A DNA stretch of 36,515 nucleotides from an uncultured Alphaproteobacteria bacterium (GTDB lineage: Bacteria; Electryoneota; RPQS01): NCBI GenBank assembly GCA_964529255.1, contig CAZGVT010000001.1, forward strand, positions 31,403 to 67,917, given 5' to 3'. This document shows positions 182-29,713 of this stretch, piece after piece (position 1 is the stretch's first letter; each line of letters begins with the position of its first letter). The notes under the pieces are model-generated. The model saw only the letters and a program-made list of their open reading frames with translations, was not told where the DNA came from and ran no database searches. The position numbers were made by a program, and so were the translations under genes.

Positions 182-234
182 ATGTCATGCAAATCCGACC
201 TTTGCGGAGAACTAATATCTGGAGACGATCCACT

Positions 235-2181: not shown

Positions 2182-2185
2182 AGCG

Positions 2186-4210: not shown

Positions 4211-4217
4211 CCGAGCT

Positions 4218-6632: not shown

Positions 6633-6638
6633 GGAAAA

Positions 6639-9740: not shown

Positions 9741-9881
9741 ATGATTGCGAGTTTCTTTTAGGGCATGGCTCAAAACGTTGCAAAGCTGGACAATCGGGCA
9801 TATATTATTTCGTATAGACCACGATGCGTTGCGGCGGTTGAGTTCGGTTTTTCCACTAACCGTGAGGATGGGAGGTTGGCC

Positions 9882-12800
9882 ATGAACAGGAAGTTTGAAC
9901 GTTGTTGGATTGGGCTCGCATTCGTTGCGGCCCTTTTTCTTGGACAGGAAGTCCGTGCACAGGGCGGCGAAACCTGCGCCACCGCAACTGTAATCTCTGC
10001 CTTGCCTTATTGCGACACGGGCACGACAGTCGGTCACGTAAATGACTACACTCCGCCGTGTGTGACAGGCGTGGCCGCACCGGATGTGGTGTACAGCTAC
10101 ACTCCGGTGACGACGCAAGTGATTACTGTATCTCTTTGTTTTTCAGCCTACAACACTGCACTTCACGTTTGGCGGGGCTGTCCGGACGCCGGGGGAGCCT
10201 TGTTTTGCTGTAATGACAACTTGTGCGCGTTGCAGAGTTGTTGTCAGAATCTGACAGTGGCACCGGGATTCACGTACTATTTCATCGTGGATGGGAGCCT
10301 GAACGGCGGGGGAGCCAGCGCCGGTCAGTACCTGATCCAAGTGGTGAACGGGCCGCAATGCCCGACGCAGCCGTGTGATCCGGACATCTGTCCATTCCCG
10401 GATCGGGACTTCGAACCCGCAAACAACACATGCACCGGGAACGTGCCGGTGCTGTCCTGCGATGACACGCTGTGCGGGGAGATCAATCCGACGAACGATC
10501 AGGATTGGTATTCGATCGACCTTCCGCAACCGGACTGCGTCATCCTGACGATAGACGTCTATGCGGATGATACTCCGGGGTGGTGGCCGTTCGGGATGGG
10601 ATTGAATCCGAAAGTCTGGCTGGTGGGAATTGACTGTGCGACGGTGCTGGCGATGGACGATGACGGCGGCGTGGGAACGGATTCGCGGCTGGTATCGCCG
10701 TGTCTGGTGCCGGGGCGCTATAAGATCATGGTTCAGAATGCGAGCGCGACGCAGCCGGGCGGTCCGTACGTCTTACGGACATCGTGTGAGACCTGTCAGT
10801 GTCCGGCGGACTCCTGCAATTACCGGAACGGCGACATTGAGCCGAATAACACGTGCGCAAGCGCGGGTGTGATGCCGTTTTGTCCGGACACGGTCTGCGG
10901 GTTGATTGACAATGCAAATGACGGCGACTACTACCAGTTTCAGATCCCGAGCGGGACCTGCGCGGTGGTAACGATTGACGTCTTCGGCGATGACACCCCG
11001 GGCTGGTGGCCATTCGGGCAGGGTTTGAATCCGCAGTTCTGTCTCTATGACGGCGGTTGCACGATGACAATTAGCTGCCGGACCGTGGGCGGCGTGGGGG
11101 ATGATCCGCGCCTGGTGACCCCATGCCTTCCGGGCGGACTGTACAAGCTTCGCGTGGCGTCGGAGGGCGGGACGATCGGGCCGTACATTCTGGCGTTGGA
11201 CTGCGAACCGTGTCCGTGTCCGGTGGACACTTGTCCTTATCCGGATTTGGATTTTGAGCCGGTGAACGATTCGTGTTCGACGAACATCCCGATTTTCCAG
11301 TGCGGGGATACGTTGTGCGGCGAGATTGACGCGCTGGGCGATGAAGACTGGTATTGCGTGCAGCTTCCGGGACCGGAGTGCAATCGCATTGTGATAGATG
11401 TCTTCGGGAATGACACACCGGGGTGGTGGCCGTTTGGCCAGGGCTTGAACCCGCTGGTACGGTTGATCGGTCCGGATTGCACGACACTGCTGGGATTCGA
11501 TGACAACGGCGGCGAGGGCACCGACAGCCGGTTGGTTTCGGACTGTCTGCCGCCGGGGCTTTACCGGATACTGATCGAAGGGACGGGGACGATTGTTCCG
11601 ACCATCGGACCGTATATTCTGGCGACGTATTGCGAGCCGTGTCCGTGTCCGTGCGATCTGACCTGTCCGGCCAATGCAATCCCCGAAGGCGAGCCGTGTC
11701 CGAACATTCCTGATAATTTCAATTCCGGATGTTTAAGCACGCCGCCGTCGTTCAGTCCGATTCAGTGCAATTCGGTGGTTTGCGGGACTTCGTTCGCCGC
11801 AGCGGGTGCCAGCCGGGACACCGACTGGTATTTGTTGCAGTTGACGGCGCGGGACAGTGTGTACTGGTGGGTGACGGCGGAGTTCCAGTTCGAGATGGCG
11901 GTGTTCGATCTCTCGGGCGGCTGTGCGAATCTCGACACACTCATCGTGGCGACGGGCGACACCTGTGATACGGTTTGCGTGGTGGACTGCTTTGAGCCGG
12001 GCGTGTATGCCCTCTACGTGGCGCCGCTGCCGGGGACGATCTGGCCGTGTTCGGAATATATCATGTGGCTGCAGTGCCGTCCCTGCGCGATGGACACGTG
12101 CCCCTATCCGAGCCGGGACTTTGAAGCGGTGAACAACACCTGTGAGACTTTCAACCCGCAATTGACATGCGATGACACGCTGTGCGGAGATATTCAGCCC
12201 GTCGGCGATCGTGACTGGTATCTGCTGTTCGTTCCCGATCCCTGTGCGATCGTAACGATTGACGTGTTTGGCGACGACACGCCGGGTTGGTGGCCGTTTG
12301 GTCAGGGGCTCGATCCGCGGGTGACGCTGGTCTCGCTGGATTGCGGAACGGTGATTACCTTTGATCTGAATAGCGGCATCGGAGAGGATCCGAGATTGGT
12401 GAGTCCGTGCTTGCCCGGCGGGCTGTATCATGTGCTGGTCGAGGGCGAAGGTGCGGCGGCGCCGTCGACGGGACCGTACATCATTGCGGTTCACTGTGAT
12501 CCGTGTGACTGCACACCCTGCGATATCGATTGCGTTGTCGGCGATACTCCCGAAGGAGAGCCTTGTCCGAACTACCCGGATGCCTTCAATTCCGGGTGTG
12601 ACAGCCCGATTGGCGGAGTGCCGCTGCGGCCGATTCAATGCGGGCAGACGATTTGCGGTCATCTGCAGGCGGACACGAATCGCTATGACCGCGATTGGTA
12701 TCAGTTGCGGACGAACGAGAACGACACCTTGATGTGGTGTGTCTGGTCTGAGGTTCCGATCCGGACCTATATCATCGCCGCCGGACCGGGCGGCAATCCG

Positions 12801-13256
12801 TGTATCTTCTCCGATACGCTGGTCTGCCGCCGCACGTCCGGACCGTGCGACACGGTGTGCATGGGAGTTTGCGTGCCGCCGGGCGAGTACTTGTTCAAGA
12901 TCGAATCCAACGTGGACAGCGCACCGCCTTACCCGGTGATTCCGTGCTCGACCACCTACCGTGCGCGCTTGCTCTGCACGATCTGTTCGCCCGCCCTGCC
13001 GGAGACACCGGACAGCGTGGTGATTCATTATCCGACGATTGCGGTGGACGACATGAATCTGCACTGGCCACCTGTGCCCGGCGCGGAGTCGTATTTCATC
13101 TACCGCTCGACGAATTCGGAAGTGATTCCCAGCCCTGCCACGTACATCGGCATGACTGCGGACACATTCTACGTGGATCCGGCCATTGTCGGCGGAGTTG
13201 ACGAGCGGAATTTCTATGTGATAAAGGCTTCGATTCGCGTGAACGGGTGTAGGTAA
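9882..13256 (+). CDS. Large secreted Cys-rich modular protein (PPC-like beta-sandwich modules, C-terminal FN3-like domain)
   Basis: ORF 9765-13256. The ATG at 9882 follows GGAGG and gives signal peptide MNRKFERCWIGLAFVAALFLGQEVRA. Four ~140-aa modules start at ~10389, 10815, 11232 and 12099, with C.YP..DFEP.N..C, D.DWY and DDTPGWWPFGQGLNP. Two modules of a second type start at ~11664 and ~12531 (PEGEPCPN.PD.FNSGC ... RD.DWY). FN3-like tail. No T9SS CTD. Confidence 0.8.
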   Translation: MNRKFERCWIGLAFVAALFLGQEVRAQGGETCATATVISALPYCDTGTTVGHVNDYTPPCVTGVAAPDVVYSYTPVTTQVITVSLCFSAYNTALHVWRGCPDAGGALFCCNDNLCALQSCCQNLTVAPGFTYYFIVDGSLNGGGASAGQYLIQVVNGPQCPTQPCDPDICPFPDRDFEPANNTCTGNVPVLSCDDTLCGEINPTNDQDWYSIDLPQPDCVILTIDVYADDTPGWWPFGMGLNPKVWLVGIDCATVLAMDDDGGVGTDSRLVSPCLVPGRYKIMVQNASATQPGGPYVLRTSCETCQCPADSCNYRNGDIEPNNTCASAGVMPFCPDTVCGLIDNANDGDYYQFQIPSGTCAVVTIDVFGDDTPGWWPFGQGLNPQFCLYDGGCTMTISCRTVGGVGDDPRLVTPCLPGGLYKLRVASEGGTIGPYILALDCEPCPCPVDTCPYPDLDFEPVNDSCSTNIPIFQCGDTLCGEIDALGDEDWYCVQLPGPECNRIVIDVFGNDTPGWWPFGQGLNPLVRLIGPDCTTLLGFDDNGGEGTDSRLVSDCLPPGLYRILIEGTGTIVPTIGPYILATYCEPCPCPCDLTCPANAIPEGEPCPNIPDNFNSGCLSTPPSFSPIQCNSVVCGTSFAAAGASRDTDWYLLQLTARDSVYWWVTAEFQFEMAVFDLSGGCANLDTLIVATGDTCDTVCVVDCFEPGVYALYVAPLPGTIWPCSEYIMWLQCRPCAMDTCPYPSRDFEAVNNTCETFNPQLTCDDTLCGDIQPVGDRDWYLLFVPDPCAIVTIDVFGDDTPGWWPFGQGLDPRVTLVSLDCGTVITFDLNSGIGEDPRLVSPCLPGGLYHVLVEGEGAAAPSTGPYIIAVHCDPCDCTPCDIDCVVGDTPEGEPCPNYPDAFNSGCDSPIGGVPLRPIQCGQTICGHLQADTNRYDRDWYQLRTNENDTLMWCVWSEVPIRTYIIAAGPGGNPCIFSDTLVCRRTSGPCDTVCMGVCVPPGEYLFKIESNVDSAPPYPVIPCSTTYRARLLCTICSPALPETPDSVVIHYPTIAVDDMNLHWPPVPGAESYFIYRSTNSEVIPSPATYIGMTADTFYVDPAIVGGVDERNFYVIKASIRVNGCR

Positions 13257-13285: not shown

Positions 13286-13317
13286 GCGGCCCCGGGAAAC
13301 CGGGGCCGCTGATTTTT
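13286..13317 (+). terminator. Rho-independent terminator
   Basis: GCGGCCCCGG / GAAA / CCGGGGCCGC perfect 10-bp stem (13286-13309), then TGATTTTT. Confidence 0.75.
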
Positions 13318-13403
13318 CGATGGTCTCGACTGTCAAAATCGCAGATCGCTCCGCGGAGGCCTGTAAACATTCTGAGTCATCAGAAGCATTGTTGTAAAGT
13401 TTT

Positions 13404-13523
13404 GTGTTTTATGCGTTTATAATATTTCACCGGGTTTGACTCCCGGTTTTTTTTTTGCGTATCTTGTCTTGGGGCCTTGCGGATCAGGCCGAAGTTCTTT
13501 AACATCAAGAGGAGGGTACGGTC
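13404..13523 (+). promoter_or_regulatory. Conserved promoter/leader of cassette A
   Basis: About 120 nt nearly identical to 15673-15788. TTGACT (13436-13441), 18-nt T-rich spacer, TATCTT (13460-13465). A TATAAT also lies at ~13418. Leader hairpin GGCC-ttgcggatca-GGCC, then SD AAGAGGAGG. Confidence 0.5.
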
Positions 13524-14000
13524 ATGAAATGCGGGATTCAAGTCGTGCTGGTTTTGGTCTGTTGTTGTGTGGGCTGGGCACAGGGGCCGGATGCTTGTGT
13601 GCAGTGTGTTTGCGTCGCAGACAATACGTGCACGACCCACAGTGGATGCGGGCAGCTTGACGGGTGTGCGGGCGTGAACTTCACATCGATTTGCGGTGGC
13701 CAGTATACAATCAAAGTTGTACTGAAATGCGACTCGGATGAAATCTGCGAAGATTGTTTTGCTTGCGGCTTGGTATCACAGAACGGCCAGCCGCTTTGGA
13801 ACATCGCGCAGGCAGGGTGCAATACAACTTGCGAAGGGACTACCACAGTGAACCTGACGTACAACCAGCAGTATACCCTTCACGCCTGTCTGCGCGCATG
13901 TGCAGGGGTTGACTGCCGCACGTGCGAGTCGTGCACGGTACGGGCGTACATCTACAAGGCCTGGTCCGATTGCACGCCGATTCCGCCGTGCGATCCATGA
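13524..14000 (+). CDS. Small secreted cysteine-rich protein (cassette A; 20 Cys in the mature part)
   Basis: Signal peptide MKCGIQVVLVLVCCCVGWA/QGPD. Family motifs shared with 15789-16298 and 27657-28163: FT..C...Y.[IL][KR][VI]...C.....C..C.AC, and Y.L..CL..C.....C..C..CT....[VI]Y. No match to any family I recognise. Confidence 0.8.
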   Translation: MKCGIQVVLVLVCCCVGWAQGPDACVQCVCVADNTCTTHSGCGQLDGCAGVNFTSICGGQYTIKVVLKCDSDEICEDCFACGLVSQNGQPLWNIAQAGCNTTCEGTTTVNLTYNQQYTLHACLRACAGVDCRTCESCTVRAYIYKAWSDCTPIPPCDP

Positions 14001-15592
14001 GAGGTTGTATGAAGATGGTGGCAAGCCTCGTGGCATGGGTTGCAGCGGATGCATTCGCCGCCACGCTGAGAGTGCCGGCTGAGTATCCGACGATTCAGTC
14101 CGCTATAGACGCGATGTCCGAGCGGGATACCATAGTCGTTGACACGGGAGTGTATGCGGAGGCGCTGATTGCGCCTCCGCTTTCGTTTAGCCTATTCGGC
14201 ACAGAAGACTCGACGTCGGGGCGTGTCACGGGCACGGTAGTGGATCCATCTTCACTCGAGAATCCGACCGGTTTGACCTGCCTTCAAGTGTCCGGCGACA
14301 GTGTTGTCATTGACCGGATGACTTTTCGAAACGGCGCCGCGATGTATCCTCGCGAACCCGATGTCTCCGGAGGCATCCAACACGCGGCCCGTGTTCTTGA
14401 TCTGCGAAACTGTGTATTCGATTCGACTCACCGGAGTGTGCAGGGCTTCGGTGAGCGGCGCACGGTGCTCGCGGCTTGTCAATTCCGTTACAGCAGTGGA
14501 GCCTGCGTACTGACGCAGTTGGGCGTCGTGGAGGCGTACGATTGTATTTTCCAGAGCGACAGTGCGGACTGGGGCCTGGTCATGTCGCGCGGGAGTAGTA
14601 GATTTGAACGGTGCCACTTTACCGGTTACCACTGGTTTGGCTGGGACATAATGTTTCAAGGCGAGACTCTGGTCGTTCGCGATTGTCTGTTTGGGCCTTC
14701 CGGGCCCAGCTTATTGGCAACGATAAGTCTGCGAGCTCACAATGTAATCATTGAGGGAAATGAGTTTGTGAATATACGGCGCGGAACGGTGGTTGTAATT
14801 GAGGCGCGTTGTCCCGGAGAGATTGTTGTTCGAGACAACCATTTTCATCGAGTCGGCCCGCTGCCTGCAGGTGGTGGCCTGTGCATGAGCGCACTCGTGA
14901 ATTTCGAGCAGGATACTTGCCGGGAGTTTTCCACCGCAGTCGTCTCGGACAATCGTCTCACTGACTGTACGGCGCAATTGACATTTAAGGCGATCGTCTA
15001 CGCGGGCCGCGGAATGGAGATCGTGCACAACGAATTTCGCGATCTGAGTCCGCGCGAATGGCCCGCCATCGGATTTGGTTTAGGTTGGGGGACCATTCGA
15101 GATAACTTCATCCAAAATACGGGTCTCGCAGTACGAATGGACTCGACTCTTGACGGCGAAGCCGATGCGGCATTCAACTGGTGGGGGGATTCGACGGGGC
15201 CCTATCATCCGGTGTTGAATCCTGACGGATTGGGCGATGAAGTCAGCGACCGCGTGATTTTTGAGCCGTGGCATACGGACACGAGTTTCTTTGCCGACGT
15301 GCCGGAGCGGACTCCGGCAGGCGTTGCAAGCAACGCGCTACAGGTGTTCCCCAATCCGTTCAATGCGACGGCCACGCTGCGGCTCACCGTTCCGGCGCCG
15401 CAGATCGTGCGCATCGAGCTGTTCGATCTGCTCGGCAGGCGCGTGCGCGAGATATTCGTCGGGCCAGTGGCTTATCAGCGGGAATTTTCTTTGGACGCGG
15501 ATGCGCTAGCGTCGGGCATTTACTTTGCCCGCGCACAGAACACGATCACGCGCCAGACGCTGGCGATCACCAAGCTCGCGTTAGTGAAGTAA
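13997..15592 (+). CDS. Right-handed beta-helix protein with T9SS C-terminal sorting domain (cassette A)
   Basis: The ATG at 13997 overlaps the TGA of the small gene (ATGA); an alternative ATG is at 14009. Signal peptide ...VAWVAADAFA/ATLRVPAEYPTIQSAIDA...DTIVVDTGVYAE. End-of-helix motif FNWWGDSTGPYHP. CTD FPNPFNATATLRL...GIYFARAQ...LALVK. Confidence 0.85.
   Translation: MRGCMKMVASLVAWVAADAFAATLRVPAEYPTIQSAIDAMSERDTIVVDTGVYAEALIAPPLSFSLFGTEDSTSGRVTGTVVDPSSLENPTGLTCLQVSGDSVVIDRMTFRNGAAMYPREPDVSGGIQHAARVLDLRNCVFDSTHRSVQGFGERRTVLAACQFRYSSGACVLTQLGVVEAYDCIFQSDSADWGLVMSRGSSRFERCHFTGYHWFGWDIMFQGETLVVRDCLFGPSGPSLLATISLRAHNVIIEGNEFVNIRRGTVVVIEARCPGEIVVRDNHFHRVGPLPAGGGLCMSALVNFEQDTCREFSTAVVSDNRLTDCTAQLTFKAIVYAGRGMEIVHNEFRDLSPREWPAIGFGLGWGTIRDNFIQNTGLAVRMDSTLDGEADAAFNWWGDSTGPYHPVLNPDGLGDEVSDRVIFEPWHTDTSFFADVPERTPAGVASNALQVFPNPFNATATLRLTVPAPQIVRIELFDLLGRRVREIFVGPVAYQREFSLDADALASGIYFARAQNTITRQTLAITKLALVK
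15286..15556. repeat. 271-nt near-identical tract (T9SS CTD of cassette A), partner at 17569-17839
   Basis: I count 5 mismatches in 271 nt at a constant offset of 2283 nt. The upstream parts of the two genes are far more diverged. Confidence 0.85.
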
Positions 15593-15672
15593 CGGAACCT
15601 ATCACCGAAGAACTGTACACTGCCGACATACATAAATATCCTGATCCGCATGACTCCATGTCATAATTATTC

Positions 15673-15788
15673 GTGTTTTATGCGTTTATAATATTTCGCT
15701 GGGCTTGACTCCCGGTTTTTTCTGCTATCTTGCCTTGGGGCCTTGCGGATCAGGCCGAAGTTCTTTAACATCAAGGGGAGGAGATATC
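15673..15788 (+). promoter_or_regulatory. Conserved promoter/leader of cassette B
   Basis: Homologous to 13404-13523. TTGACT (15705-15710), 15-nt spacer, TATCTT (15726-15731). Same GGCC...GGCC hairpin. SD AAGGGGAGGAG. Confidence 0.45.
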
Positions 15789-16298
15789 GTGAAGCTCGGA
15801 ATACTTGTGTTTTTACCTCTGATGCTTTGCGGCGGTCTGACGCTTGCGCAGTCGCCTGAATCCTGCACGCAGTGTATGTGTGCGGCGGACAGCGACTGCA
15901 AGCTGCTTGGCGACTGTCCGGATGAGAGTGACTTGGATGGCTGCAAGCTGCAATCGTTCACGGCAGGCTGCAACGGCAACTATACAATCAGGATTGATCT
16001 GCAATGTCCGGGCGGCTCGAATTGCCGTCACTGCCTTGCCTGCGCCGTACTGTATGACATGGATTCGGGGAGCGAGATTGCACGCTGCCATACCACGTGC
16101 AATGCTAATGAGTGCACGTACGTCTGCACGAACATCGCGGCGCTCAGTTCCGGCCATGATTACAAGCTGTATGTCTGCCTAAGCAACTGCGCAAGCGAGG
16201 AGACCTGCGACGATTGCGGGCAGTGTACCGCTCGCGGCTATGTGTATGCAGGCTCGTTTGCAACTGCGTGCGACAACATTCCGGCTTGCAATCCTTGA
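15789..16298 (+). CDS. Small secreted cysteine-rich protein (cassette B; 22 Cys)
   Basis: The GTG at 15789 follows the SD; the track's TTG at 15705 sits in the conserved leader. Signal peptide VKLGILVFLPLMLCGGLTLA/QSPE. Same Cys scaffold as cassette A. Confidence 0.8.
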   Translation: MKLGILVFLPLMLCGGLTLAQSPESCTQCMCAADSDCKLLGDCPDESDLDGCKLQSFTAGCNGNYTIRIDLQCPGGSNCRHCLACAVLYDMDSGSEIARCHTTCNANECTYVCTNIAALSSGHDYKLYVCLSNCASEETCDDCGQCTARGYVYAGSFATACDNIPACNP

Positions 16299-17875
16299 GT
16301 TGTTTCAAGCGGCTGGCTGCCGTCCTCGCCCTGGCTCCCTTGGCTGTATTAGCCGCCACGCTGCGCGTGCCCGGGGAGTATCCGGATATCCAGTCGGCGA
16401 TTGATGCATGCAGCGGCGGTGATACGGTCCTTGTGGCCGTGGGAGTCTACCACGAATCGCTGCTGCTGGCGTTCCACACAGTGACGCTGCTGGGCGAGGT
16501 CGAGCCGGATTCGGGGGAATACGCGCGCCCGGTGATTGATCCTTCCACGCTGGACAATCCGGGTACGAGACGCTGCATAACGATCAACGGCGGATTGGTG
16601 ACGATCGCCGAATTCGGATTTCGCAATGGCGCTGCGATGTACCCGAGATCGGGGAACAACAGCGGCGGCATCGTCAATCACAACGACTCGCTGGTGTTGT
16701 CCGGCTGTGTGTTCGATTCCGTATACATTCCCGTGCTTTCCGAAAACGAGCCTTGCGTCGTGGAGCGCTGCATTATGCGGAATGCGCAGGGCAGATGTAT
16801 TGATACGGGCGAGTCGTCTTTGCGGTTGGTGGATAGCTGGGTATCAGGGCAGAGCGGTTGGGGGCTTGTGGATTGTGGCCGCGGTTCGTTTTTCTTGCGC
16901 AGCCGGATCGGTGACAACGTCTCGGGCGGCCATTTGGTACTTGCGGCGGGCGGTGACCATTTGTTTCAGGATTGCGTGTTCGAGAGACTTGGCGCAACCC
17001 CGGAGCCCGCAGTATGGGGTTTTTTCGGCGGATCGCTGATCGAGCGGTGCATATTCCGCAGTTGTACGACTGGCGGATCGCTGATCATGGCGACTGCCTG
17101 CGATTGCGGACGGCCGCTGCAATTTCGCGACAATCTGTTGCACCAAAACGGAAATGCAAGCGGTCGCGGTCAGGGAGGGGGGCGCGTGATGATTGGCTGC
17201 GCGGACAGTGCGAATTGTCACGTGCTGATTGCGGAGAACAATGTGTTCGTGGATGGCTCGGTGCTGGCCGGCATAAAGGCATTAGGTGTGTCCGGGGTTG
17301 CTCAGGTGCGTCACAATAGATTCGAGCGGCACACTCCGGTCGGATCTCCCGCAGTGTTTGCCGGTCTCAACGGTCTCCAATGCCGGGAGAATTTTTTTCA
17401 CGACAACGGATTCGCAGCGGACGCTGACGTAAATTTTGCGATCAGCATGGACGCGCGCTTCAACTGGTGGGGCAATACCTCCGGACCGCGATCCACGTTC
17501 AACCCGAACGGCACAGGTGACTCGACAGGTTTGACAGTGGACATTTCAGATTGGTATGCAGACACGACTTTCTTTGCCGACGTGCCGGAGCGGACTCCGG
17601 CAGGCGTTGCAAGCAACGCGCTACAGGTGTTCCCCAATCCGTTCAATGCGACGGCCACGCTGCGGCTCACCGTTCCGGCGCCGCAGATCGTGCGCATCGA
17701 GCTGTTCGATCTGCTCGGCAGGCACGTGCGCGAGATATTCGTCGGGCCAGTGGCTTATCAGCGGGAATTTTCTTTGAACGCGGATGCGCTGGCGTCGGGC
17801 ATTTACTTCGCCCGCGCACAGGACACGATCACGCGCCAGTCCCTCGCCCTGACCAAGCTCGCGGTGGTAAAGTAA
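16295..17875 (+). CDS. Right-handed beta-helix protein with T9SS C-terminal sorting domain (cassette B)
   Basis: The in-frame TTG at 16295 overlaps the small gene's TGA (TTGA), giving SCFKRLAAVLALAPLAVLA/ATLRVPGEYPDIQSAIDA. There is no in-frame ATG between the small-gene stop and the ATLRVP motif. FNWWGNTSGP. The CTD is 98% identical in DNA to that of cassette A. Confidence 0.8.
   Translation: MSCFKRLAAVLALAPLAVLAATLRVPGEYPDIQSAIDACSGGDTVLVAVGVYHESLLLAFHTVTLLGEVEPDSGEYARPVIDPSTLDNPGTRRCITINGGLVTIAEFGFRNGAAMYPRSGNNSGGIVNHNDSLVLSGCVFDSVYIPVLSENEPCVVERCIMRNAQGRCIDTGESSLRLVDSWVSGQSGWGLVDCGRGSFFLRSRIGDNVSGGHLVLAAGGDHLFQDCVFERLGATPEPAVWGFFGGSLIERCIFRSCTTGGSLIMATACDCGRPLQFRDNLLHQNGNASGRGQGGGRVMIGCADSANCHVLIAENNVFVDGSVLAGIKALGVSGVAQVRHNRFERHTPVGSPAVFAGLNGLQCRENFFHDNGFAADADVNFAISMDARFNWWGNTSGPRSTFNPNGTGDSTGLTVDISDWYADTTFFADVPERTPAGVASNALQVFPNPFNATATLRLTVPAPQIVRIELFDLLGRHVREIFVGPVAYQREFSLNADALASGIYFARAQDTITRQSLALTKLAVVK
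17569..17839. repeat. Partner copy of the 15286-15556 tract (T9SS CTD of cassette B)
   Basis: See 15286-15556. Confidence 0.85.
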
Positions 17876-17910: not shown

Positions 17911-17936
17911 CGCGGCCCCGGGAAACCGGGGCCGCG
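17911..17936. terminator. Hairpin between convergent genes (possible bidirectional terminator)
   Basis: CGCGGCCCCGG / GAAA / CCGGGGCCGCG. The core 24 nt are identical to the 13286-13309 terminator stem-loop. There is no clear U-tract on either strand. Confidence 0.4.
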
Positions 17937-18513: not shown

Positions 18514-18783
18514 TCAAGACGGGAAAGCTGTCGAGGTCAGTCCGGTTCCGCCCGACTCAACCGGATCGACGGACCAGATAGATGGTTCAACGAGGAATTC
18601 TTCTTTGCATGCCGTAGAGCAAAAGTAGAACATCTTGCCATTGTATTGGACCGAATCAGAAATCGGTTCGGGCCCGGCACCGTCGCGGATCCAGCAAGTT
18701 TGGCAGCGATCGGTTGTTGCAATCGGTGTCGCAAATGCTGTGGAAACAATAGAAAAAATACAAAGCCCGAGAAAGAATTTCAC
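18514..18783 (-). CDS. Secreted YHS-domain protein (putative metal-binding)
   Basis: Signal peptide MKFFLGLCIFSIVSTAFA. YNGKMFYFCSTACKEEFLVEP matches the YHS motif (Y.G..YYFCS..C...F). The GTG start overlaps the TGA of the upstream gene (GTGA). Confidence 0.75.
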   Translation of the reverse strand: MKFFLGLCIFSIVSTAFATPIATTDRCQTCWIRDGAGPEPISDSVQYNGKMFYFCSTACKEEFLVEPSIWSVDPVESGGTGLTSTAFPS

Positions 18784-21700: not shown

Positions 21701-21863
21701 TGGCCACGTCTTCACCGAGCGGTTGCATGGCGCCGTTCCAGCCGAGATGCAACCCCTGACGGATGGGAATGCCATCTTCGGCCCAGAAGTATTGCGCGTG
21801 GGCGCTACAGGCTATCAGCGTGGCGAGCAATAGTGCGGTCAGAGGTCGTGTCATTGAGCTCAA
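18780..21863 (-). CDS. Large T9SS-sorted repeat protein (propeller-like W-x-D-x-R ... Y-A-Q repeats)
   Basis: Signal peptide MSSMTRPLTALLLATLIACSAHA. At least 7 repeats, e.g. LLVWEDYVAGRYRDLYAQRYTADGLPLW, WAVWEDQRNNDDYPEFDLYATHLDAAGNP, FVGWDDYRSTQYARIYCTRFDANGNALW. CTD IYPNPFNPAATIEF...GVYFARVEDG...KMVLLK. Confidence 0.85.
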   Translation of the reverse strand: MSSMTRPLTALLLATLIACSAHAQYFWAEDGIPIRQGLHLGWNGAMQPLGEDVAMFYNDCRRDGTRDVWAEKLTAEGDRLWGEQGLLVTPHESEQRSPVSALYPDGTMLLVWEDYVAGRYRDLYAQRYTADGLPLWTPSTGVAIVEADHDQFDPHIAIAENGTTFIVFTDDRESGGGENTRLGAYAQVVGPNGNRIGPADGFVLVDRYRGWNISAGIVAVDGNGYALVSMATTAQEDIVIQKILPDGSIAWPEDPAIVTTECGPPPIIAVIPGGLAIGYTSCDFPQEDAYVKCVDLELNDLPGWSENGLLLAVGNPHAATVGLVPVNGSVLKVAAVNYDLDVNQSIASVGAVSFAGELLGAVGMTNVAAGVSPIDLVNAGGDTLLIAWVERTEVDNIRTHRLRLAKSWSPTTLSELLPPDVFVRVNKELRTDLVKPLTGAARLALLTGRSVERPESLWTVALASDGEFAQSPELLGSGITYDVFDKQVVRIDDEHFAILWSDTRERIERDLYLQIVDRFGQPLLEPNGKLIARSNGSLMESLALAADHHGGVYVAWRGYLSSGVYFANVMRIDDLGNEVWPDPVILTSPIGFYGNSYLVSDDAGVYFARTEYNSNYITRSRVTRITSSGQIAWTPETRELTGPMSSDMSLESVATDGASGLFLTMTVGPWEDTDIRLYHLAADGTAGTGWSDEGLEFSSDGVRDAFPQVCFVGSGVVLTYGREVDGASMYSLRATAYSASGSALWGPLPRNLLGEEPRIFGYAIESDGLGGFFVGWDDYRSTQYARIYCTRFDANGNALWNQAGVRISTDDNEQGGLSMTADGSGGLWAVWEDQRNNDDYPEFDLYATHLDAAGNPANIAGFVWPAEGFPLCDVPTHSREVKLISWIVGSAVAVWMDQRSSNPGRCCGAGSVGDIFNNIYAQTLSEVSLSAGQGGPPATISDLSISSIYPNPFNPAATIEFTLPRMSRVKLSILNTLGQQVTILADQTMNAGTHKLSFDGSKLSSGVYFARVEDGRSFHLRKMVLLK

Positions 21864-21920: not shown

Positions 21921-22118
21921 TCAGGTCTTCAGTCTCTCTATACAGCCTTCCACCGGGCATAGTTCCACGCACTTGGGCGTTTCATAGTGACCCTCGCAGT
22001 TGTTGCAGATACTGGGGTTAATTTCAAAGATTACAGGCCCTTCGGTTATCGCGTTGACGGGGCAGGCAGGCAGGCAGAAGTTGCAGGCGATGCACGTGTC
22101 GTTGATGGCGTGGGGCAT
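21921..22118 (-). CDS. 2x[4Fe-4S] ferredoxin (YfhL/Alvin-like spacing)
   Basis: CIACNFCLPACP (CxxCxxCxxxCP) and CNNCEGHYETPKCVELCP (CxxCx8CxxxCP). 65 aa. Confidence 0.85.
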   Translation of the reverse strand: MPHAINDTCIACNFCLPACPVNAITEGPVIFEINPSICNNCEGHYETPKCVELCPVEGCIERLKT

Positions 22119-22168: not shown

Positions 22169-22596
22169 TCTATCACAATCAGGCACCTAATTCCGGGTGA
22201 AGAGCGTGAATTCTTGCGCGGTTTGGCGACTTGGCACTTCGGATCGGTGGACTGAGAGATCTGTAATTGATTGATTGTATTGCTTTTGCGTTGCGAGCTG
22301 GTGGTTGCACGGACAATTGTCGATTTTGCCCCAAGGCCTTGACTCACCCCCCCCTGTGTCTATTATATTATGACGCAGAGTCGACATGGGTGGGACCCAT
22401 TGACGAGTGGGCGGATGTTGTCAGCGGACAACATTCACTTCGAGCGCCGGAAGTTCATATCACGTGCGAGCACATAATGGATCCGAAGCTTACACGTGCG
22501 GCCCGGCGACAGGGAAGCTTTCCAACACGACCCTTAACTGCTCTGGGAGTTGAGCTTTGTTCGGAGTCAATATGCAGAACCATCGCAGAGTCATAG
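22169..22596 (+). pseudogene. Possible decayed relic of a cassette-type small Cys-rich gene
   Basis: TATCACAATCAGG (22170-22182) resembles TATACAATCAGG of cassette B (YTIR). Frame-shifted pieces: NSCAVW (compare CAVLY), GGCTDNCRFC (compare GGSNCRHC and CTDANCAYC), CLLYYDAES (compare CAVLYDMDS), and terminal LCSESIC (compare SCTATAC). No signal peptide and no intact frame. The 3' end overlaps the beta-helix gene start, as in cassettes A-C. Confidence 0.35.
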
Positions 22597-24281
22597 GGCC
22601 GTGCTTTCAGTGGGTGCAAACCTGTGTGATCACGGTGGTTCTGCTTATTATCGTAGAAAGCAAGGCAACTGTATTTGTCGTCCCGGACGATTTCACGATG
22701 ATACAGGCTGCGGTCAATGTCACATCTCCGGGAGACACTGTGCGTGTCAGTCCCGGAGTGTATCATGAAGTCTTGATCCTGCCGCCGCATGATCTCTGTC
22801 TGTTGGGAGATTACGTCTTCACGGCGGACTCGGCGGATCTGCTGGGAACCGTAATCGACGCGGAGACCTTTTCTCAACTCGATACGGCCGCAGTGATCAC
22901 GATGATCGGCGGCATCAGCCGAGATACTCATATTTCGGGTTTCGTACTTCGACACGGGACCGGAACCGACCTGCCCCAGCGGGGAAAGAACGGTGGTGCG
23001 ATTCACATGCGAGACTCGTCTCCGCGAATTACTGCGTGCATACTGGAAAACAACAGTAGTGCAACCGGAGCGATCCTTAGTTTTGGCGGCGGCCCAGACG
23101 TTCGGCAGTGCAGATTTTTCGGCAATTGGTGCGGTTCGGACTGGTTGTGCCTTTTCTTGTCAAATCTCACTTATGAACCGATAAGATTTGAGTGGAACCG
23201 GATCACGGGAAACAGCGGACCGAGCGCGGCAGTGACGGAGTTTTCTTACGCTGATGCGAATGTACGCTATAACCGTTTTCATCAACTCGGCACCCCCGGC
23301 ACCTGGTGCTTGACAATGCTTGAATCCAATGGAGAAGTTCGTGGTAATGTCTTTGAAGAAATCGACGGCTCCGCCGTCGGACGACCCGTATGGTACCTTG
23401 ACAGGCATGTGTCGTCCGTATCGGAGAATACTTTTCGAGACATCGTGCTGTCGGGCGGCCGTTGTATTGTGATACAGAGGAATCACCCCGGTGGAACGCA
23501 ATTGATCGAGCGAAACCTGTTTCAGAACCTCGTGCAACCTGATCCGGTCTCGGGCATTGCCTTGTTTCTTCAGCATCCGGATGCAGTTATCGTGGAGAAC
23601 ACGTTTGTAGATTGTCAGGGAGGCGGGAGGGGAGTGATTTTCCTTTCACTATCGTCTCCGGAATGGTGCAGCCAGGTGGTTATCCGGCGGAATCTGTTCC
23701 TGCGGAACTCGGCCCCGGTGGATTCCTGGGGAGCCATTTCTGTGTATCCCTATGGACCTTGTACGATGCAGGAGAATTGGTTTGAGGGGAATATGCCCTT
23801 GGCGGTGGGACAGTATGAACTCAATCATGATTGGGACGTCTCCGGCAACTACTGGGGTCACCCAAGTGGCCCCTTCCATCCGGCGGAAAACCCCTCTGGC
23901 GAGGGGGATACGATTCAGATTGGTTGCCACGCCACCCCGTGGCTGACCGAGCCGCCTCAACTTGTAGCTCACTTGCGTCCTTCGCCGGGAATTCCCGGAG
24001 GCTTCTCGCTTTACTCCGTGTACCCCAATCCTTTCAATAACTCGGTTCACATTTCGTTGACAGCGAGCCGGGTGACGGCCCTTCGGCTTGAGGTTTTTGA
24101 CATCACCGGCAGATTGGTGCGGGAGCTTTGGCAGGGCGTGCTTCCCGCACAAGGGCAGCGGACCGTAATTTGGGATGGTCGGGACGCCCGTGGCGATGCA
24201 CCTACTGGCATGTATCTGATCGCGGCCTCTGAACTGGGTTCAGCGAATCGTCAATTCAGAAAAGCCGTGCTGCTGAAGTAG
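22557..24281 (+). CDS. Right-handed beta-helix protein with T9SS C-terminal sorting domain (fourth family member)
   Basis: Start is TTG 22557 or ATG 22572; MQNHRRVIGPC parallels MRIPQHVRVPC of cassette C. TVFVVPDDFTMIQAAVN...GDTVRVSPGVYHE. GNYWGHPSGPFHP. CTD VYPNPFNNSVHISL...GMYLIAAS...KAVLLK. Confidence 0.85.
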   Translation: MFGVNMQNHRRVIGPCFQWVQTCVITVVLLIIVESKATVFVVPDDFTMIQAAVNVTSPGDTVRVSPGVYHEVLILPPHDLCLLGDYVFTADSADLLGTVIDAETFSQLDTAAVITMIGGISRDTHISGFVLRHGTGTDLPQRGKNGGAIHMRDSSPRITACILENNSSATGAILSFGGGPDVRQCRFFGNWCGSDWLCLFLSNLTYEPIRFEWNRITGNSGPSAAVTEFSYADANVRYNRFHQLGTPGTWCLTMLESNGEVRGNVFEEIDGSAVGRPVWYLDRHVSSVSENTFRDIVLSGGRCIVIQRNHPGGTQLIERNLFQNLVQPDPVSGIALFLQHPDAVIVENTFVDCQGGGRGVIFLSLSSPEWCSQVVIRRNLFLRNSAPVDSWGAISVYPYGPCTMQENWFEGNMPLAVGQYELNHDWDVSGNYWGHPSGPFHPAENPSGEGDTIQIGCHATPWLTEPPQLVAHLRPSPGIPGGFSLYSVYPNPFNNSVHISLTASRVTALRLEVFDITGRLVRELWQGVLPAQGQRTVIWDGRDARGDAPTGMYLIAASELGSANRQFRKAVLLK

Positions 24282-27566: not shown

Positions 27567-27656
27567 TTGACATGACCCTTTTTTTGTGCTTACTTTAGGC
27601 GCACCCCCGCCTGACGGGGCTTTCGTGGCTGATTCAATTCCATCAAGAGGTGCGAA
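27567..27656 (+). promoter_or_regulatory. Promoter/leader of cassette C, homologous in layout to the A/B leaders
   Basis: TTGACA (27567-27572), 18-nt T-rich spacer, TACTTT (27591-27596). Leader hairpin CCCCG-cctga-CGGGG. The shared string CATCAAGAGG lies before the ATG. Confidence 0.45.
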
Positions 27657-28163
27657 ATGAAATGGCGTACTTGTGCACTAATTGTTGTTCTGATTGCTTT
27701 CGACGTCGGGGCGCAGGGAGGGCCGGATGCATGTGTATTCGCGGTAAGCGCAAAGGATGCGACCTGCAGTGGCTTTTTAAGTTGCGATGCTTCGACAACC
27801 ACGGACTGTGGCTCAAAAACATTCACGGTGGCGTGTACTGACACCTACTATTTGAAAGTCAATGCAAGTTGCACCGACGCGAATTGCGCCTATTGTGATG
27901 CTTGCGCGTTTGTCTACGGACGAGGTGCATATATCACGGAGTCGATTTGTGATCTGCCGAGCTGCGCTGAAGGAGGGTGTGCTTACGACTGCAGCGCCGG
28001 CCACGGCTTCAATGGCTTTGCGCTTTCCACCGGCATCACATACACGCTGTATGTATGTTTGAGACCATGCGGCGGCGGCGCACAAGAGTGCGGGGCCTGT
28101 AACAATAGCTGTACTGCAACAGCATGCGTATACCTCAACACGTCAGAGTGCCCTGCGCCGTAG
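27657..28163 (+). CDS. Small secreted cysteine-rich protein (cassette C; 20 Cys)
   Basis: Signal peptide MKWRTCALIVVLIAFDVGA/QGGPDAC. FTVACTDTYYLKVNASCTDANCAYCDACAFVY and YTLYVCLRPCGGGAQECGACNNSCTATACVY align with A and B. Confidence 0.8.
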   Translation: MKWRTCALIVVLIAFDVGAQGGPDACVFAVSAKDATCSGFLSCDASTTTDCGSKTFTVACTDTYYLKVNASCTDANCAYCDACAFVYGRGAYITESICDLPSCAEGGCAYDCSAGHGFNGFALSTGITYTLYVCLRPCGGGAQECGACNNSCTATACVYLNTSECPAP

Positions 28164-29713
28164 CGGCCGGAATTCTCGCCATCGTGATGGCAGCTCGAGT
28201 TGGTGAGGCCCGCGCGATTCGGGTACCGGGCGAGATTCCGACTATCCAGGGCGCCTTCGACATTCTGCTGCCGGGAGATTCCGTACTTGTAGATTCCGGC
28301 GTCTACGCGGAGTCGCTGGTCGGGCCGGATTTTCAGTTTGTGCTCATGGGTGTCGGAGCCGCGCCAGTGCTTGATCCATCGTCCGTCGCCGGCTCGGACA
28401 CGCTGCCGTGTCTCATCTTGCCGGAGGGTAGCGCTGCGACGATAGAAGATTTCACGTTTCTCAATGGCGCCGCGATGTATCCACGCGACCCGCCCCGACC
28501 GGGCGGGATACGATTGTTTGGTCAATCTCTGATCCTCAGGCGGTGCGAATTTGATTCTGTGTTCCAGGGAATCATCCGGGGCGAGTTCGACGTCGCGACA
28601 ACACTCATTCTCGATCAGTGCCGTTTCGTCGATTCTCAGTACGGCTGTGTGTATTCGCCCTTCAGTTCACTTGAGGCCACCGATTGCTTATTCAGCGGAG
28701 CGAACGGCTATCTTGTCGTATGCGGAAATATGCGCGTTGAGGGTTGCCGCTTCGGGGGTGAGACATCCGGTTATCTGTTGCTTGGCTTCGATGGCGGCCA
28801 GATACGGAATTGTCTGTTTGGCCCGCACGGACCGTCCGGGTTTCAATCGGTGCGCCTGTTGCATTTTTCGGGAGTTGTCGAGAATAATGTCTTCACAGAC
28901 TGCGCTGCGGGGCACCATGTGCTGCACATCCAAATGCCATGCCACGGGGAATCGCTACGGGTAGCGAACAACGTTCTTACCGAAAACTCCGGCGGATCAT
29001 CCACGAGCTTCGGCTTTGGCTGCGATTCCTTTGTTGTTGAGACGCCCGTCCTGGAGGTGCGTGACAACGTCGTGGAATTCTCCCGCGCGAGCGGCGGGGG
29101 TTCCAGGGGACTCTTGACCGCCGTTCCAGGGATGTTTACGCGTAACCGCTTTCACCGCTTGGAGCCGGACACACCGGCGGCCACAAGATCGAATTATTCT
29201 GAGGGTGTCGTGCTGCGGGAGAATATATTCTCGGAGACTGGGCTTGCAGCGGCAGTGCACAGACCGGACATCTATCCGTACCGCATGGACGCACGATGGA
29301 ATTGGTGGGGCCATGCATCAGGGCCTTACCATCCACTCCTCAATCCGCAGGGATTGGGCGATGCGGTTGGTGACAGCATTCCGTTCGATCCTTGGTATCC
29401 CGACACGTCGTTTTTGGAAACGCCGGTTCGCACACGACCGAGCGTCGCAAGCGCCGCGCTACAGGCGTTTCCGAATCCGTTCAACGCCACCGTAACCCTG
29501 AAATTCGAAATCCCCGAGCCGGGGATTTTCAGGATGGAATTATTCGATCTGTTGGGGAGAAGAGTGCGGGAATTATGGGCCGGGCCGGTGGCGTGCGAGA
29601 AGACCATTCGTGTGGACGGACGCGATCTGGCCTCTGGAATCTACTTCGCGCGCGTCTGGCAACCCCTGCACAACCGCCCGGTGGCGACCGCGAAGTTGGT
29701 GTTGATCAAGTAG
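28124..29713 (+). CDS. Right-handed beta-helix protein with T9SS C-terminal sorting domain (cassette C)
   Basis: ATG 28124 (alternative GTG 28148) overlaps the small gene's 3' end. ...AARVGEA/RAIRVPGEIPTIQGAFD...GDSVLVDSGVYAE. WNWWGHASGPYHP. CTD FPNPFNATVTLKF...GIYFARVW...KLVLIK. Confidence 0.85.
   Translation: MRIPQHVRVPCAVAAGILAIVMAARVGEARAIRVPGEIPTIQGAFDILLPGDSVLVDSGVYAESLVGPDFQFVLMGVGAAPVLDPSSVAGSDTLPCLILPEGSAATIEDFTFLNGAAMYPRDPPRPGGIRLFGQSLILRRCEFDSVFQGIIRGEFDVATTLILDQCRFVDSQYGCVYSPFSSLEATDCLFSGANGYLVVCGNMRVEGCRFGGETSGYLLLGFDGGQIRNCLFGPHGPSGFQSVRLLHFSGVVENNVFTDCAAGHHVLHIQMPCHGESLRVANNVLTENSGGSSTSFGFGCDSFVVETPVLEVRDNVVEFSRASGGGSRGLLTAVPGMFTRNRFHRLEPDTPAATRSNYSEGVVLRENIFSETGLAAAVHRPDIYPYRMDARWNWWGHASGPYHPLLNPQGLGDAVGDSIPFDPWYPDTSFLETPVRTRPSVASAALQAFPNPFNATVTLKFEIPEPGIFRMELFDLLGRRVRELWAGPVACEKTIRVDGRDLASGIYFARVWQPLHNRPVATAKLVLIK

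Follow-up and report, generated by a model that had tools for sequence, protein, structure and literature searches.

Cysteine-rich secreted proteins encoded directly upstream of type IX-sorted beta-helix proteins are candidate cognate partners

Results

Gene pairs and their transcription units

The window, as we call the whole 36,515-nucleotide stretch of DNA analyzed here, contains three complete two-gene cassettes, A (13524 to 15592), B (15789 to 17875), and C (27657 to 29713), in each of which the gene for a small protein with a Sec signal (∼160 amino acids [aa]) comes first and is followed by the gene for a beta-helix protein of ∼525 aa that bears a type IX secretion system (T9SS) type A sorting domain (Table 1). 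The unit of a Cys-rich secreted protein and a T9SS beta-helix protein, which the original prediction had described for A and B, is therefore present as C as well, and the motifs quoted for the large proteins (ATLRVP.EYP.IQSAIDA and FNWWG..SGP) were found in them. A family of four members had also been proposed; the paired copy at 27.6 kb (C) belongs to it, but the copy placed at 22.1 kb is a lone, distant beta-helix gene (D), and the tally is three pairs and one orphan. No small gene was detectable before D in a profile search: a match at 22404 to 22550 (8 bits) was not significant, and the idea of a small-gene remnant, for which its position was suggestive, was dropped at E = 0.1. The only Cys-rich ORF near D (21921 to 22118, minus strand) contains two ferredoxin-type motifs (CxxCxxCxxxCP), as read by eye. 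Kinship of the small family with the Cys-rich repeat protein encoded upstream (9765 to 13256) was rejected, an HMM match being absent. Four genes in the neighborhood of the cassettes encode Peptidase_S74 domains, which are intramolecular chaperones. The window also encodes a glutamine synthetase whose nearest affinity is to candidate division KSB1.

The predicted start/stop coupling is clear in B, where the TTG start of the large gene overlaps the TGA of the small gene (TTGA, 4-nt overlap), but not in A, where the ATG of the ATGA overlap (13997) is one of three candidate starts, with 14009 and 14015; the gene model of the collection (525 aa) uses 14015, and, depending on the start, the two genes overlap by 4 nt or are separated by ≤14 nt. 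The two ORFs of C overlap by 40 nt, and in the other intact loci the junctions range from −4 to +35 nt.

Table 1. Positions of the genes and regulatory features in the window
Feature	Coordinates	Strand	Description
Terminator hairpin of the gene upstream of A	13286..13309	+	GCGGCCCCGGGAAACCGGGGCCGC, 24 nt; identical copy at 17912-17935
Cassette A promoter module	13429..13465	+	Hairpin and T-run; −35 TTGACT (13436-13441) inside the loop; 18-nt T-rich spacer; −10 TATCTT (13460-13465)
Cassette A 5'-UTR stem-loop	13473..13490	+	GGCCTTGCGGATCAGGCC, then Shine-Dalgarno GAGGAGG; identical in B
Small protein A	13524..14000	+	158 aa; Sec signal peptide; 20 mature Cys; predicted beta-sandwich
Large protein A	13997..15592	+	Signal peptide, predicted right-handed beta-helix, T9SS type A sorting domain; alternative starts 14009, 14015
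Sorting-domain DNA of A	15269..15568	+	95% identical to 17552-17851 in B; putative gene-conversion tract
Cassette B promoter module	15698..15731	+	Hairpin with −35 TTGACT (15705-15710); 15-nt spacer; −10 TATCTT (15726-15731)
Cassette B 5'-UTR stem-loop	15739..15756	+	Identical to GGCCTTGCGGATCAGGCC of A
Small protein B	15789..16298	+	169 aa (P0002); GTG start; 22 mature Cys
Large protein B	16295..17875	+	526 aa (P0017); TTG start; predicted beta-helix and T9SS sorting domain
Terminator hairpin after cassette B	17912..17935	+	Copy of GCGGCCCCGGGAAACCGGGGCCGC; closes the A+B tandem
Large protein D	22572..24281	+	Lone sister-clade beta-helix/T9SS gene; 25% identical to A; without small partner
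Cassette C promoter-like site	27567..27595	+	TTGACA, 17-nt T-rich spacer, TTACTT; read directly from the sequence
Small protein C	27657..28163	+	168 aa; 20 mature Cys
Large protein C	28124..29713	+	529 aa (P0022); predicted beta-helix and T9SS sorting domain

Sequence patterns give good support for every cassette being its own predicted transcription unit, in which a promoter and a 5' stem-loop precede two genes coupled in translation. The promoter of A was assigned from promoter-like and terminator-like pattern matches, the same layout is found before B, and the A-type layout also precedes two cassettes of GCA_964631675.1. The promoter hairpin of B probably doubles as the terminator of A. The hairpin GCGGCCCCGGGAAACCGGGGCCGC occurs twice, against 0 occurrences expected by chance, and the 5' stem-loop has a counterpart in another locus, L007 (GGCCTTGCGGATGAGGC). 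As predicted, the leader is conserved: 13400 to 13520 is 82 to 92% identical to the leader before B, compared with 35 to 60% for the coding bodies (DNA). A riboswitch or similar RNA element was considered for the leader and rejected, since Rfam contained no matching family and the conserved parts correspond to the −35 box, the T-rich spacer, the −10 box, and the 5' stem-loop. Covariation within the leader was essentially none, with only four sequences compared.

The small proteins form a Cys-rich family

The small proteins A, B, and C are 34 to 40% identical to one another and contain 24, 23, and 21 Cys, respectively, of which 20, 22, and 20 lie in the mature part, i.e., after the predicted signal peptidase I site (A-x-A/Q, with the slash marking cleavage). 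Their signal peptides, which end in GWA/QG, TLA/QS, and VGA/QG, are of the Sec and not the Tat type, and a lipobox ([LVI][ASTVI][GAS]C) is absent from all three. Across the family, the mature protein has ∼135 residues, ∼15% Cys, and recurrent CxxC and CxxCxxC spacings, and 16 Cys are invariant in a 12-member alignment. A full HMMER profile search (E ≤ 1e-3) retrieved 265 clusters at 50% identity, in which the number of Cys has a median of 20 and is mostly even; a word-indexed protein search had understated the family at only 12 members. The clusters looked up carry no annotation other than "hypothetical protein." Between the small-gene orthologues of loci L001 and L006, pN is 0.17 and pS is 0.80. 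The 265 clusters, the shared Cys content, and a pN far lower than pS establish the small ORFs as real genes and the family as real.

The claim that the small protein lies outside any described family was upheld by searches of Pfam, NCBIfam, PADLOC, PHROGs, and PDB sequences, all of which were empty; the profile of 12 small proteins retrieved 0 PDB chains at E ≤ 10. PKD-domain homology was rejected: a 3,311-aa PKD-repeat protein (P0168) matched profile positions 44 to 96 nine times, which we took as a likeness of strand pattern (YT.T.TV...C..C). An Fe-S or metal protein, suggested by two ferredoxin-like CxxCxxC motifs, was rejected because the signal peptide is of the Sec and not the Tat type, Cys numbers are mostly even, and the model (described below) is a compact beta-sandwich.

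AlphaFold modeled the small protein as a confident beta-sandwich (pLDDT 82.8, pTM 0.76), which is probably stapled by 9 to 11 disulfides and on whose surface almost no residues are conserved in the family. The best Foldseek matches (PDB and BFVD) were C1q/TNF-like jelly-rolls, with E values of 5e-5 to 1e-3 but TM-scores of only 0.3 to 0.5. Like the small protein, C1q/TNF-like heads (C1q, cerebellins, the Chlamydia Pgp3 C-terminal domain, and phage tail-fiber tips) are compact beta-sandwiches of ∼130 residues; however, sequence identity is only 10 to 18%, the heads have no counterpart to the disulfide load, and the small protein has no Pfam C1q/TNF match.

The large proteins are predicted T9SS cargo with a beta-helix body

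The T9SS type A sorting domain (TIGR04183) scored 31.7, 30.0, 24.7, and 23.8 bits in large proteins A, B, C, and D, respectively (cut-off, 23). Beta_helix (PF13229) scored 33.3, 32.8, and 47.2 bits in A, C, and D (cut-off, 25.9), and large protein B is 46% identical to A. In the AlphaFold model (pLDDT 89.6), short strands are stacked over residues 23 to 390, with a helix at the N-terminal end and a beta-sandwich at the C-terminal end (residues 447 to 529); in this model, the large protein adopts the pectin-lyase fold, a right-handed parallel beta-helix. With a sorting domain above the cut-off and an N-terminal Sec signal, it is predicted to be secreted as T9SS type A cargo.

Foldseek returned generic pectin-lyase-fold proteins at TM-scores of ≤0.35 (tailspikes, pectin methylesterases, PL6 lyases, and AlgG). 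An enzyme assignment was rejected, since the PDB profile search gave E ≥ 0.35 and the structural matches were generic beta-helices only, and no catalytic site is recognizable in the beta-helix. A peptidase domain was sought in Pfam, NCBIfam, and Foldseek and was not found, Beta_helix and Por_Secre_tail being the only domains, and searches of Pfam, NCBIfam, and PADLOC revealed no toxin domain. In the core clade of large proteins, most of the invariant residues are Phe, Asn, and Cys of the ladders; D142-S143, N112, and D83 are also invariant. Periplasmic beta-helix proteins of the NosD/CASH type have the N-terminal cap (TIQ.AI..A..GDT..V..G.Y.E) and the beta-helix repeats in common with the large proteins, but the NosD model (TIGR04247) scored only 12.5 to 21.5 bits, far under the cut-off of 300; moreover, the nos gene context is absent here, and the large proteins end in a T9SS sorting domain.

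The pairs are old and diverge together

A and B are indeed adjacent units, but the description "tandemly duplicated" understates their age, as for each cassette type (A, B, and C) a closer relative exists in another genome than in the window. Identity between A and B is a mosaic with sharp edges, at 82 to 92% in the leader, 35 to 60% in the bodies, and 87 to 100% in the sorting domain, for which protein identity is 93% and DNA identity 95%; pS is 0.106 in sorting-domain DNA and 0.74 in the gene body. The three cassettes are, from these comparisons, old paralogues, and the leader and sorting-domain DNA of A and B appears to have been homogenized by gene conversion.

A beta-helix/T9SS gene lies directly 3' of the small gene in all 26 readable loci of the window and other assemblies (at least 10 assemblies, down to ∼30% identity), so that the strict 1:1 pairing originally proposed extends beyond a local accident. 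In the core clade of large genes, a small gene is found upstream in 23 of 24 readable cases, L012 being the gene without one; in the sister clade (10 genes, D included), it is found in none. As the sister clade is never paired, the partner appears dispensable for generic beta-helix folding and T9SS export. The suggestion that the small protein might be a cap is unlikely, since the modeled beta-helix is already capped at both ends, by a helix at the N terminus and by a conserved NWWG..GP motif at the C terminus, and sister-clade proteins retain these ends without any partner.

The divergence of the two partners is correlated (Pearson r = 0.71, falling to 0.56 when near-identical pairs are left out; Mantel p ∼7e-4), and in 11 of 17 pairs the small and the large protein have the same nearest neighbor. 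No fused small-large protein was seen among the 150 best matches of the small family or ∼60 full-length large homologues. By the sequence evidence, the small and large proteins very probably work as a cognate pair.

Discussion

T9SS cargo proteins are normally treated as single polypeptides with their own sorting tag. To our knowledge, the only small partner gene described before T9SS cargo belongs to the potempin/KLIKK system of one oral pathogen, in which the cargo proteins are proteases. In Tannerella forsythia, the potempin ORFs overlap the T9SS protease genes or sit ≤5 bp upstream, are co-transcribed with them, and encode 1:1 nanomolar inhibitors (PMC9890683); the KLIKK proteases have a nearly identical sorting domain in common (PMC4404884). 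In cassettes A, B, and C, a small ORF likewise lies upstream of T9SS cargo and is coupled to it. Potempins (98 to 132 mature residues) and the small family are small all-beta secreted proteins encoded directly upstream of a T9SS cargo gene, several diverged pairs occur per genome in both systems, and KLIKK proteases resemble the large proteins in being paralogues with a near-identical sorting domain (A and B here) and differing bodies. However, potempins are lipoproteins with a lipobox, whereas the small family has a signal peptidase I site, no lipobox, and ∼20 cysteines; the partners of potempins are peptidases of known families, whereas the large proteins have no peptidase or other assignable catalytic domain. 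The small family shows no sequence similarity to PotA-E (0 PDB chains), and potempins are absent among the 50 PDB fold matches listed. Staphostatins and serralysin inhibitors are also co-transcribed protease inhibitors (PMC9890683). Such inhibitors and the periplasmic immunity proteins of secreted effectors that degrade cell walls share with the small family their small size, Sec export, an adjoining secreted partner, co-evolution, and multiple diverged pairs; their partners have demonstrable toxic or enzymatic domains, unlike the large proteins. Immunity genes are usually located downstream of the effector gene, whereas the small gene is upstream here, and we know of no immunity or inhibitor protein for a T9SS beta-helix cargo.

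By analogy with potempins, our tentative reading, possible rather than probable, is that the small protein binds its cognate beta-helix 1:1 and neutralizes it. Just as each potempin acts on its own neighbor, each small protein would act on the product of the adjoining gene. Coupled translation would bring both proteins to the periplasm together, where the small protein would bind its own beta-helix 1:1 through variable, co-evolving surfaces and mask or neutralize the face with which that partner binds or catalyzes, until its display or throughout it, serving as a cognate inhibitor or as a safety catch akin to an immunity protein. The sorting domain would route the beta-helix from the periplasm via the T9SS to the cell surface, and several diverged cassette types would be maintained per genome, presumably for different targets. 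Several points speak against neutralization: the beta-helix has no recognizable catalytic site, and there may be nothing to inhibit; unlike potempins, the small proteins have no lipobox, and a soluble protein of great stability that is produced at a ratio of at least 1:1 to an exported partner would accumulate in the periplasm if left behind; and such heavy disulfide bonding is found more typically in extracellular proteins.

Co-export of the small protein as a tag-less subunit ranks slightly lower than neutralization and is nearly as likely, although we consider it unlikely on balance. The small protein would dock on the folded beta-helix in the periplasm and be carried through the T9SS translocon by the C-terminal domain of its partner, much as Tat "hitchhiker" subunits are exported by riding on theirs; the product, to which we give an equally low probability, would be a two-subunit surface complex, e.g., a beta-helix stalk or enzyme with a jelly-roll recognition head. 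Strict pairing, translational coupling, and co-divergence are consistent with co-export, as is the lack of a membrane anchor or lipobox; the 9 to 11 probable disulfides suggest a design for the cell exterior, and the C1q/TNF-like heads and phage tail-fiber tips that the fold weakly resembles are receptor-binding modules. Folded proteins pass the T9SS through a very large barrel (PMC9251779). Nevertheless, a literature search on T9SS hitchhiking or piggybacking found no precedent, the fold matches are weak (TM-scores, 0.3 to 0.5), and a plain recognition module would be expected as a cargo fusion, the usual T9SS cargo architecture, of which none was seen. The most specific version, also built on analogy, in which the pair would be the first heteromeric T9SS cargo, a tailspike-like device whose disulfide-knotted jelly-roll head rides without a tag on a cognate beta-helix stalk and co-evolves with it, is a little more doubtful still.

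A gene that is upstream and coupled yields its product first and in amounts at least equal, which would suit a periplasmic assembly factor, i.e., a private holdase or foldase that would keep its beta-helix competent for export, or a template of its folding or oligomerization, released before or at export; the cognate, co-diverging pairing would suit it too, and the four Peptidase_S74 genes nearby make chaperone-assisted fiber or spike assembly a theme of the locus. We nonetheless regard such a factor as improbable, because the beta-helices of the sister clade, whose caps and sorting domain are the same, do without it, as does L012 in the core clade, and because chaperones seldom depend on 10 disulfides or change as quickly as the surface of a client. 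The small protein might instead never contact the beta-helix and be a merely co-regulated, independent secreted factor (lectin, adhesin, toxin, or metal/redox protein), and metal binding through its CxxC and CxxCxxC spacings is possible in principle. Against this, partner phylogenies match, the adjacency holds in 26 of 26 loci with codons overlapping or nearly so in at least 10 assemblies down to ∼30% identity, the mostly even Cys counts and the confident compact fold favor disulfides over metal clusters, and a Sec-type signal speaks against export of a pre-assembled Fe-S protein; independence of the two products thus seems more improbable again. Least probable, and by a low estimate, are polymorphic surface-toxin/immunity cassettes in which the leader and sorting-domain DNA would serve as homology arms for swapping an immunity gene and toxin body between strains. 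The sharp-edged identity mosaic, the contrast in pS between sorting domain and body, and the several diverged cassettes per genome are in line with that scenario, but ordinary gene conversion between tandem paralogues explains the homogenized ends equally well. Moreover, the bodies are all homologous beta-helices and not the varied toxin folds of such systems, a toxin domain was not detected (Pfam, NCBIfam, PADLOC, and Foldseek), and the cassette types are old, with orthologues across genomes at ∼50% identity, and not recently swapped.

An unrelated, unannotated family of at least 265 clusters holds a potempin-like genomic place for beta-helix surface proteins. If its members are inhibitors or immunity factors, as in the tentatively preferred neutralizer reading, the logic of a private neutralizer would reach beyond proteases; if they are co-exported, they would be the first case of T9SS hitchhiking. 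The disulfide-dense scaffold (∼15% Cys) with hypervariable surfaces may be of interest to protein engineers, and the family merits a name and a profile model to replace its "hypothetical" annotation. Its members occur in uncultured environmental bacteria, from wastewater and marine assemblies according to the record names.

Three two-gene cassettes and a lone beta-helix gene

Inspection of the ORFs and of the raw sequence confirmed the cassette arrangement of the original prediction: on the plus strand there are three cassettes (A, B, and C), each with a gene for a small cysteine-rich secreted protein followed by a gene for a large beta-helix protein with a type IX secretion system (T9SS) sorting domain. 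The original prediction had also counted a family member at 22.1 kb; the beta-helix gene with a sorting domain (D) does exist there, but it stands alone, and neither HMMs nor sequence inspection revealed a small gene upstream of it (best match 8 bits, insignificant, at 22404-22550).

Coordinates of the cassette genes and promoter hairpins
Feature	Position	Strand	Remarks
Cassette A small gene	13524-14000	+	158 aa; ORF list and raw sequence
Cassette A large gene	13997-15592	+	ORF list and raw sequence
Cassette B small gene	15789-16298	+	169 aa; GTG start
Cassette B large gene	16295-17875	+	TTG start
Cassette C small gene	27657-28163	+	168 aa
Cassette C large gene	28124-29713	+	ORF list and raw sequence
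Lone beta-helix gene D	22572-24281		Fourth in the window; ORF list and raw sequence
Promoter hairpin with -35 box in loop	13429-13465, 15698-15731; L007 (locus from another assembly) ~5352-5390, 9391-9428

The start/stop overlap predicted for A and B is clear in B (TTGA, without a Shine-Dalgarno sequence), but in A the ATGA overlap at 13997 is only one of three candidate starts of the large gene, the others being 14009 and 14015; the gene model in the protein collection (525 aa) starts at 14015. In cassette C, the two genes share 40 nt. The match just 5' of D (C.TTFT....SY.V.A, E = 0.1), the best of those below threshold that the small-family HMM has in the window, lies in a 48-codon ORF that might be what is left of a decayed partner gene. 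Between D and the 1,027-aa T9SS gene, an ORF of 65 aa (21921-22118, minus strand) resembles a small ferredoxin in its two cysteine motifs of ferredoxin type (CxxCxxCxxxCP, identified by eye); it has no relation to the small cysteine-rich family.

In domain searches, the T9SS type A sorting domain was above threshold in all four large proteins and Beta_helix in A, C, and D. The AlphaFold model of large protein A (pLDDT 89.6) consists of a signal helix, a right-handed beta-helix (residues ~23-425), a linker, and the sorting-domain sandwich (447-529). Fold and sequence searches with the large protein returned generic pectin-lyase-fold matches only. Conservation is concentrated in ladders of Phe, Asn, and Cys and in the two caps, and the only invariant polar candidates are D142-S143, N112, and D83. 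The motif NWWG[DH][SA][TS]GP at the end of the beta-helix recurs, often in several copies per protein, in beta-helix proteins of archaea (Bathyarchaeia, Thermoplasmatota) and Chloroflexota (loci L039, L048, L052, L054, L058, L074, and others) and looks like a widespread C-terminal cap or module-boundary signature.

The small proteins form a family not previously described

The small proteins A, B, and C are 34 to 40% identical to each other. In each, a basic residue at the N terminus is followed by a hydrophobic run and then by an A-x-A|Q cleavage site; the part behind this predicted signal peptide has 20, 22, and 20 cysteines, respectively. In line with the original prediction, which recognized no family in them, searches of Pfam, NCBIfam, PADLOC, PHROGs, and, with a profile, all PDB sequences gave no match. 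A word-indexed search among 5.8 billion proteins found 12 members, in whose alignment 16 cysteines are invariant and the remaining conserved positions are mostly core hydrophobics. The AlphaFold2 model from this alignment is a confident all-beta sandwich (pLDDT 82.8, pTM 0.76), for which Foldseek, a comparison proposed with the original prediction, found only loose jelly-roll relatives (TM-scores 0.3 to 0.5): C1q and cerebellin heads, the TNF-like Pgp3, a collagen-binding domain, and phage and giant-virus fibre heads.

The homologue search, proposed likewise, was extended to an exhaustive profile search and yielded 265 clusters at 50% identity (E ≤ 1e-3; 219 of them at E ≤ 1e-10), nearly all 145 to 190 aa long and with a median of 20 cysteines per protein. 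Most mature proteins have an even number of cysteines (18, 20, or 22), the last of which is usually only a few residues away from the C terminus, and all retrievable names read "hypothetical protein." The family is real and larger than the first search indicated, and it has not been described previously. Comparisons of orthologues (pN 0.17 and pS 0.80 for L001 versus L006; dN/dS ∼0.2 for L087 versus L092) indicate that it is under purifying selection.

Small and large genes are linked and co-diverge

Loci were gathered by exact homologue look-up, by scanning genomes with an alignment of the large proteins, and by scanning metagenomes with a sub-alignment of the small ones, and each locus was then searched in all six frames with the HMMs of the two families. 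Each of the 26 small genes (23 distinct) directly precedes a large-family gene on the same strand, in at least 10 assemblies and down to ∼30% identity, so the proposed 1:1 pairing and its link to beta-helix/T9SS genes hold beyond the window. A small gene lies upstream of 23 of the 24 large genes of the core clade (profile E < 1e-100) that could be read; the exception, locus L012, has a ferritin/Dps-like gene there instead (3269-3814). None of the ten full-length genes of the sister clade (E ∼1e-65 to 1e-77), which includes D, is preceded by a small gene. No fusion of the two proteins was present among the 150 best small matches or ∼60 full-length large homologues. Several genomes carry multiple cassettes, with at least five in GCA_964631675.1. 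At L019 (1659-3529), from the long-read MAG Skiv_18-Q3-R9-52_BATAC.286, only the C-terminal half of the small gene is present and the large gene is split in two frames, reflecting either joint decay or assembly frameshifts.

For 17 non-redundant pairs, identity matrices of mature small proteins and beta-helix bodies were correlated (Pearson r 0.71, or 0.56 without near-identical pairs; Mantel p ∼7e-4), and both partners have the same nearest neighbour in 11 pairs. For each of A, B, and C, GCA_964631675.1 has a closer relative (L007:9477, L005, and L004, respectively) than the window does, which indicates that the three are old paralogues; A and B are adjacent and alike in architecture, as predicted, but did not arise by recent tandem duplication. 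Cassettes A and B are 82 to 92% identical in the ∼120-nt leader, 87 to 100% in the last ∼300 nt (sorting domain), and 35 to 60% everywhere between. Their synonymous sites diverge by 0.106 in the sorting domain and by 0.74 in the body, which suggests gene conversion and not constraint alone. The L007 tandem pair shows a like mosaic pattern, with sorting domains 81% identical.

In the leader, a TTGAC -35 box lies within the loop of a terminator-like hairpin, the T-run behind the hairpin doubles as promoter spacer, and the -10 box is TATCTT or TATGAT; a 5'-UTR stem-loop (GGCCTTGCGGAT[CG]AGGC) and a strong Shine-Dalgarno sequence follow. This layout, which is shared with the L007 cassettes and more loosely with L008 and L018, can be read as a compact terminator/promoter followed by a 5' hairpin that might stabilize the mRNA. 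The promoter hairpin stem differs by genome (CCGGG/CCCGG versus CGGAAG/CTTCCG) with pairing kept; the comparison comprises four sequences only, with no useful covariation, and Rfam gave no match to the leader. An identical 24-nt GC-rich terminator hairpin (GCGGCCCCGGGAAACCGGGGCCGC) at 13286-13309 and 17912-17935 brackets the A+B tandem, the adjoining sequences being different.

Possible roles of the small protein

Both proteins of each pair are predicted to be exported. The strict and tight linkage, the co-divergence, and the dispensability of the partner for the sister clade argue for a physical partnership specific to these pairs and not for a general requirement in export or folding; what the small protein does in it is inferred. 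Overall, the interpretation given with the original prediction is partly supported. In Tannerella forsythia, potempin genes lie directly before those of KLIKK proteases secreted by the T9SS; the neighbours are co-transcribed, and potempins act on these proteases as 1:1 inhibitors (PMC9890683); the proteases are described as sharing a near-identical sorting domain (PMC4404884). A small partner gene just upstream of the T9SS cargo is common to both systems, and by this analogy the cassette can be regarded as a variant of an arrangement so far known only from potempins. We tentatively favour the possibility that the small protein would be the cognate neutralizer of its own beta-helix protein, but, in contrast to potempins, it has no lipobox, the beta-helix has no recognizable active site to block, and it is hard to see what would become of a soluble, hyper-stable protein that stays behind in the periplasm.

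A close rival, itself rather doubtful, is that the small protein leaves the cell with its partner as a tag-less subunit; this is the more novel reading, because a literature search found no precedent for such co-export via the T9SS. We consider it improbable that the small protein is a private chaperone, slightly more so that it functions independently of the beta-helix protein, and very improbable that the pairs are recombining toxin/immunity cassettes.

Genomic neighbourhood

The chromosomal flanks encode glutamine synthetase (74% identical to one labelled candidate division KSB1), a GyrA C-terminal domain, a putative Rex-like repressor (CoA_binding and Put_DNA-bind_N), and an ORF read as PabB. 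Distant relatives of the large family were found by genome scan in WOR-3, TA06, Latescibacterota, Fibrobacteraceae, and Cloacimonadota, which belong to the FCB group, where the T9SS occurs. Placement of the organism from these flanking genes and relatives is tentative. The window encodes at least five T9SS cargo proteins, since the 1,027-aa protein (18780-21863, minus strand) also carries a sorting domain (46.7 bits), its only Pfam domain.

Four tandem paralogous genes at 187-9635 (664 to 998 aa) have Gly-rich repeats with a 45-nt period and C termini conserved in all four; Peptidase_S74 (endosialidase/tail-fibre intramolecular chaperone) was detected in both of the two scanned. By appearance, all four are tail-fibre-like surface proteins, here encoded in a bacterial chromosome. 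At 9765-13256, a 1,163-aa secreted protein contains at least four cysteine-rich repeats of ∼140 aa (DTPGWWPFGQGLNP...GPYIL..C.PC), with no Pfam match and no HMM relation to the small cysteine-rich family. In a 168-aa protein (24403-24909, minus strand), an N-terminal tail encoded by 15-nt repeats, rich in Lys and Ala and resembling histone H1 (HC2-like), is fused to a SWIB/MDM2 domain.
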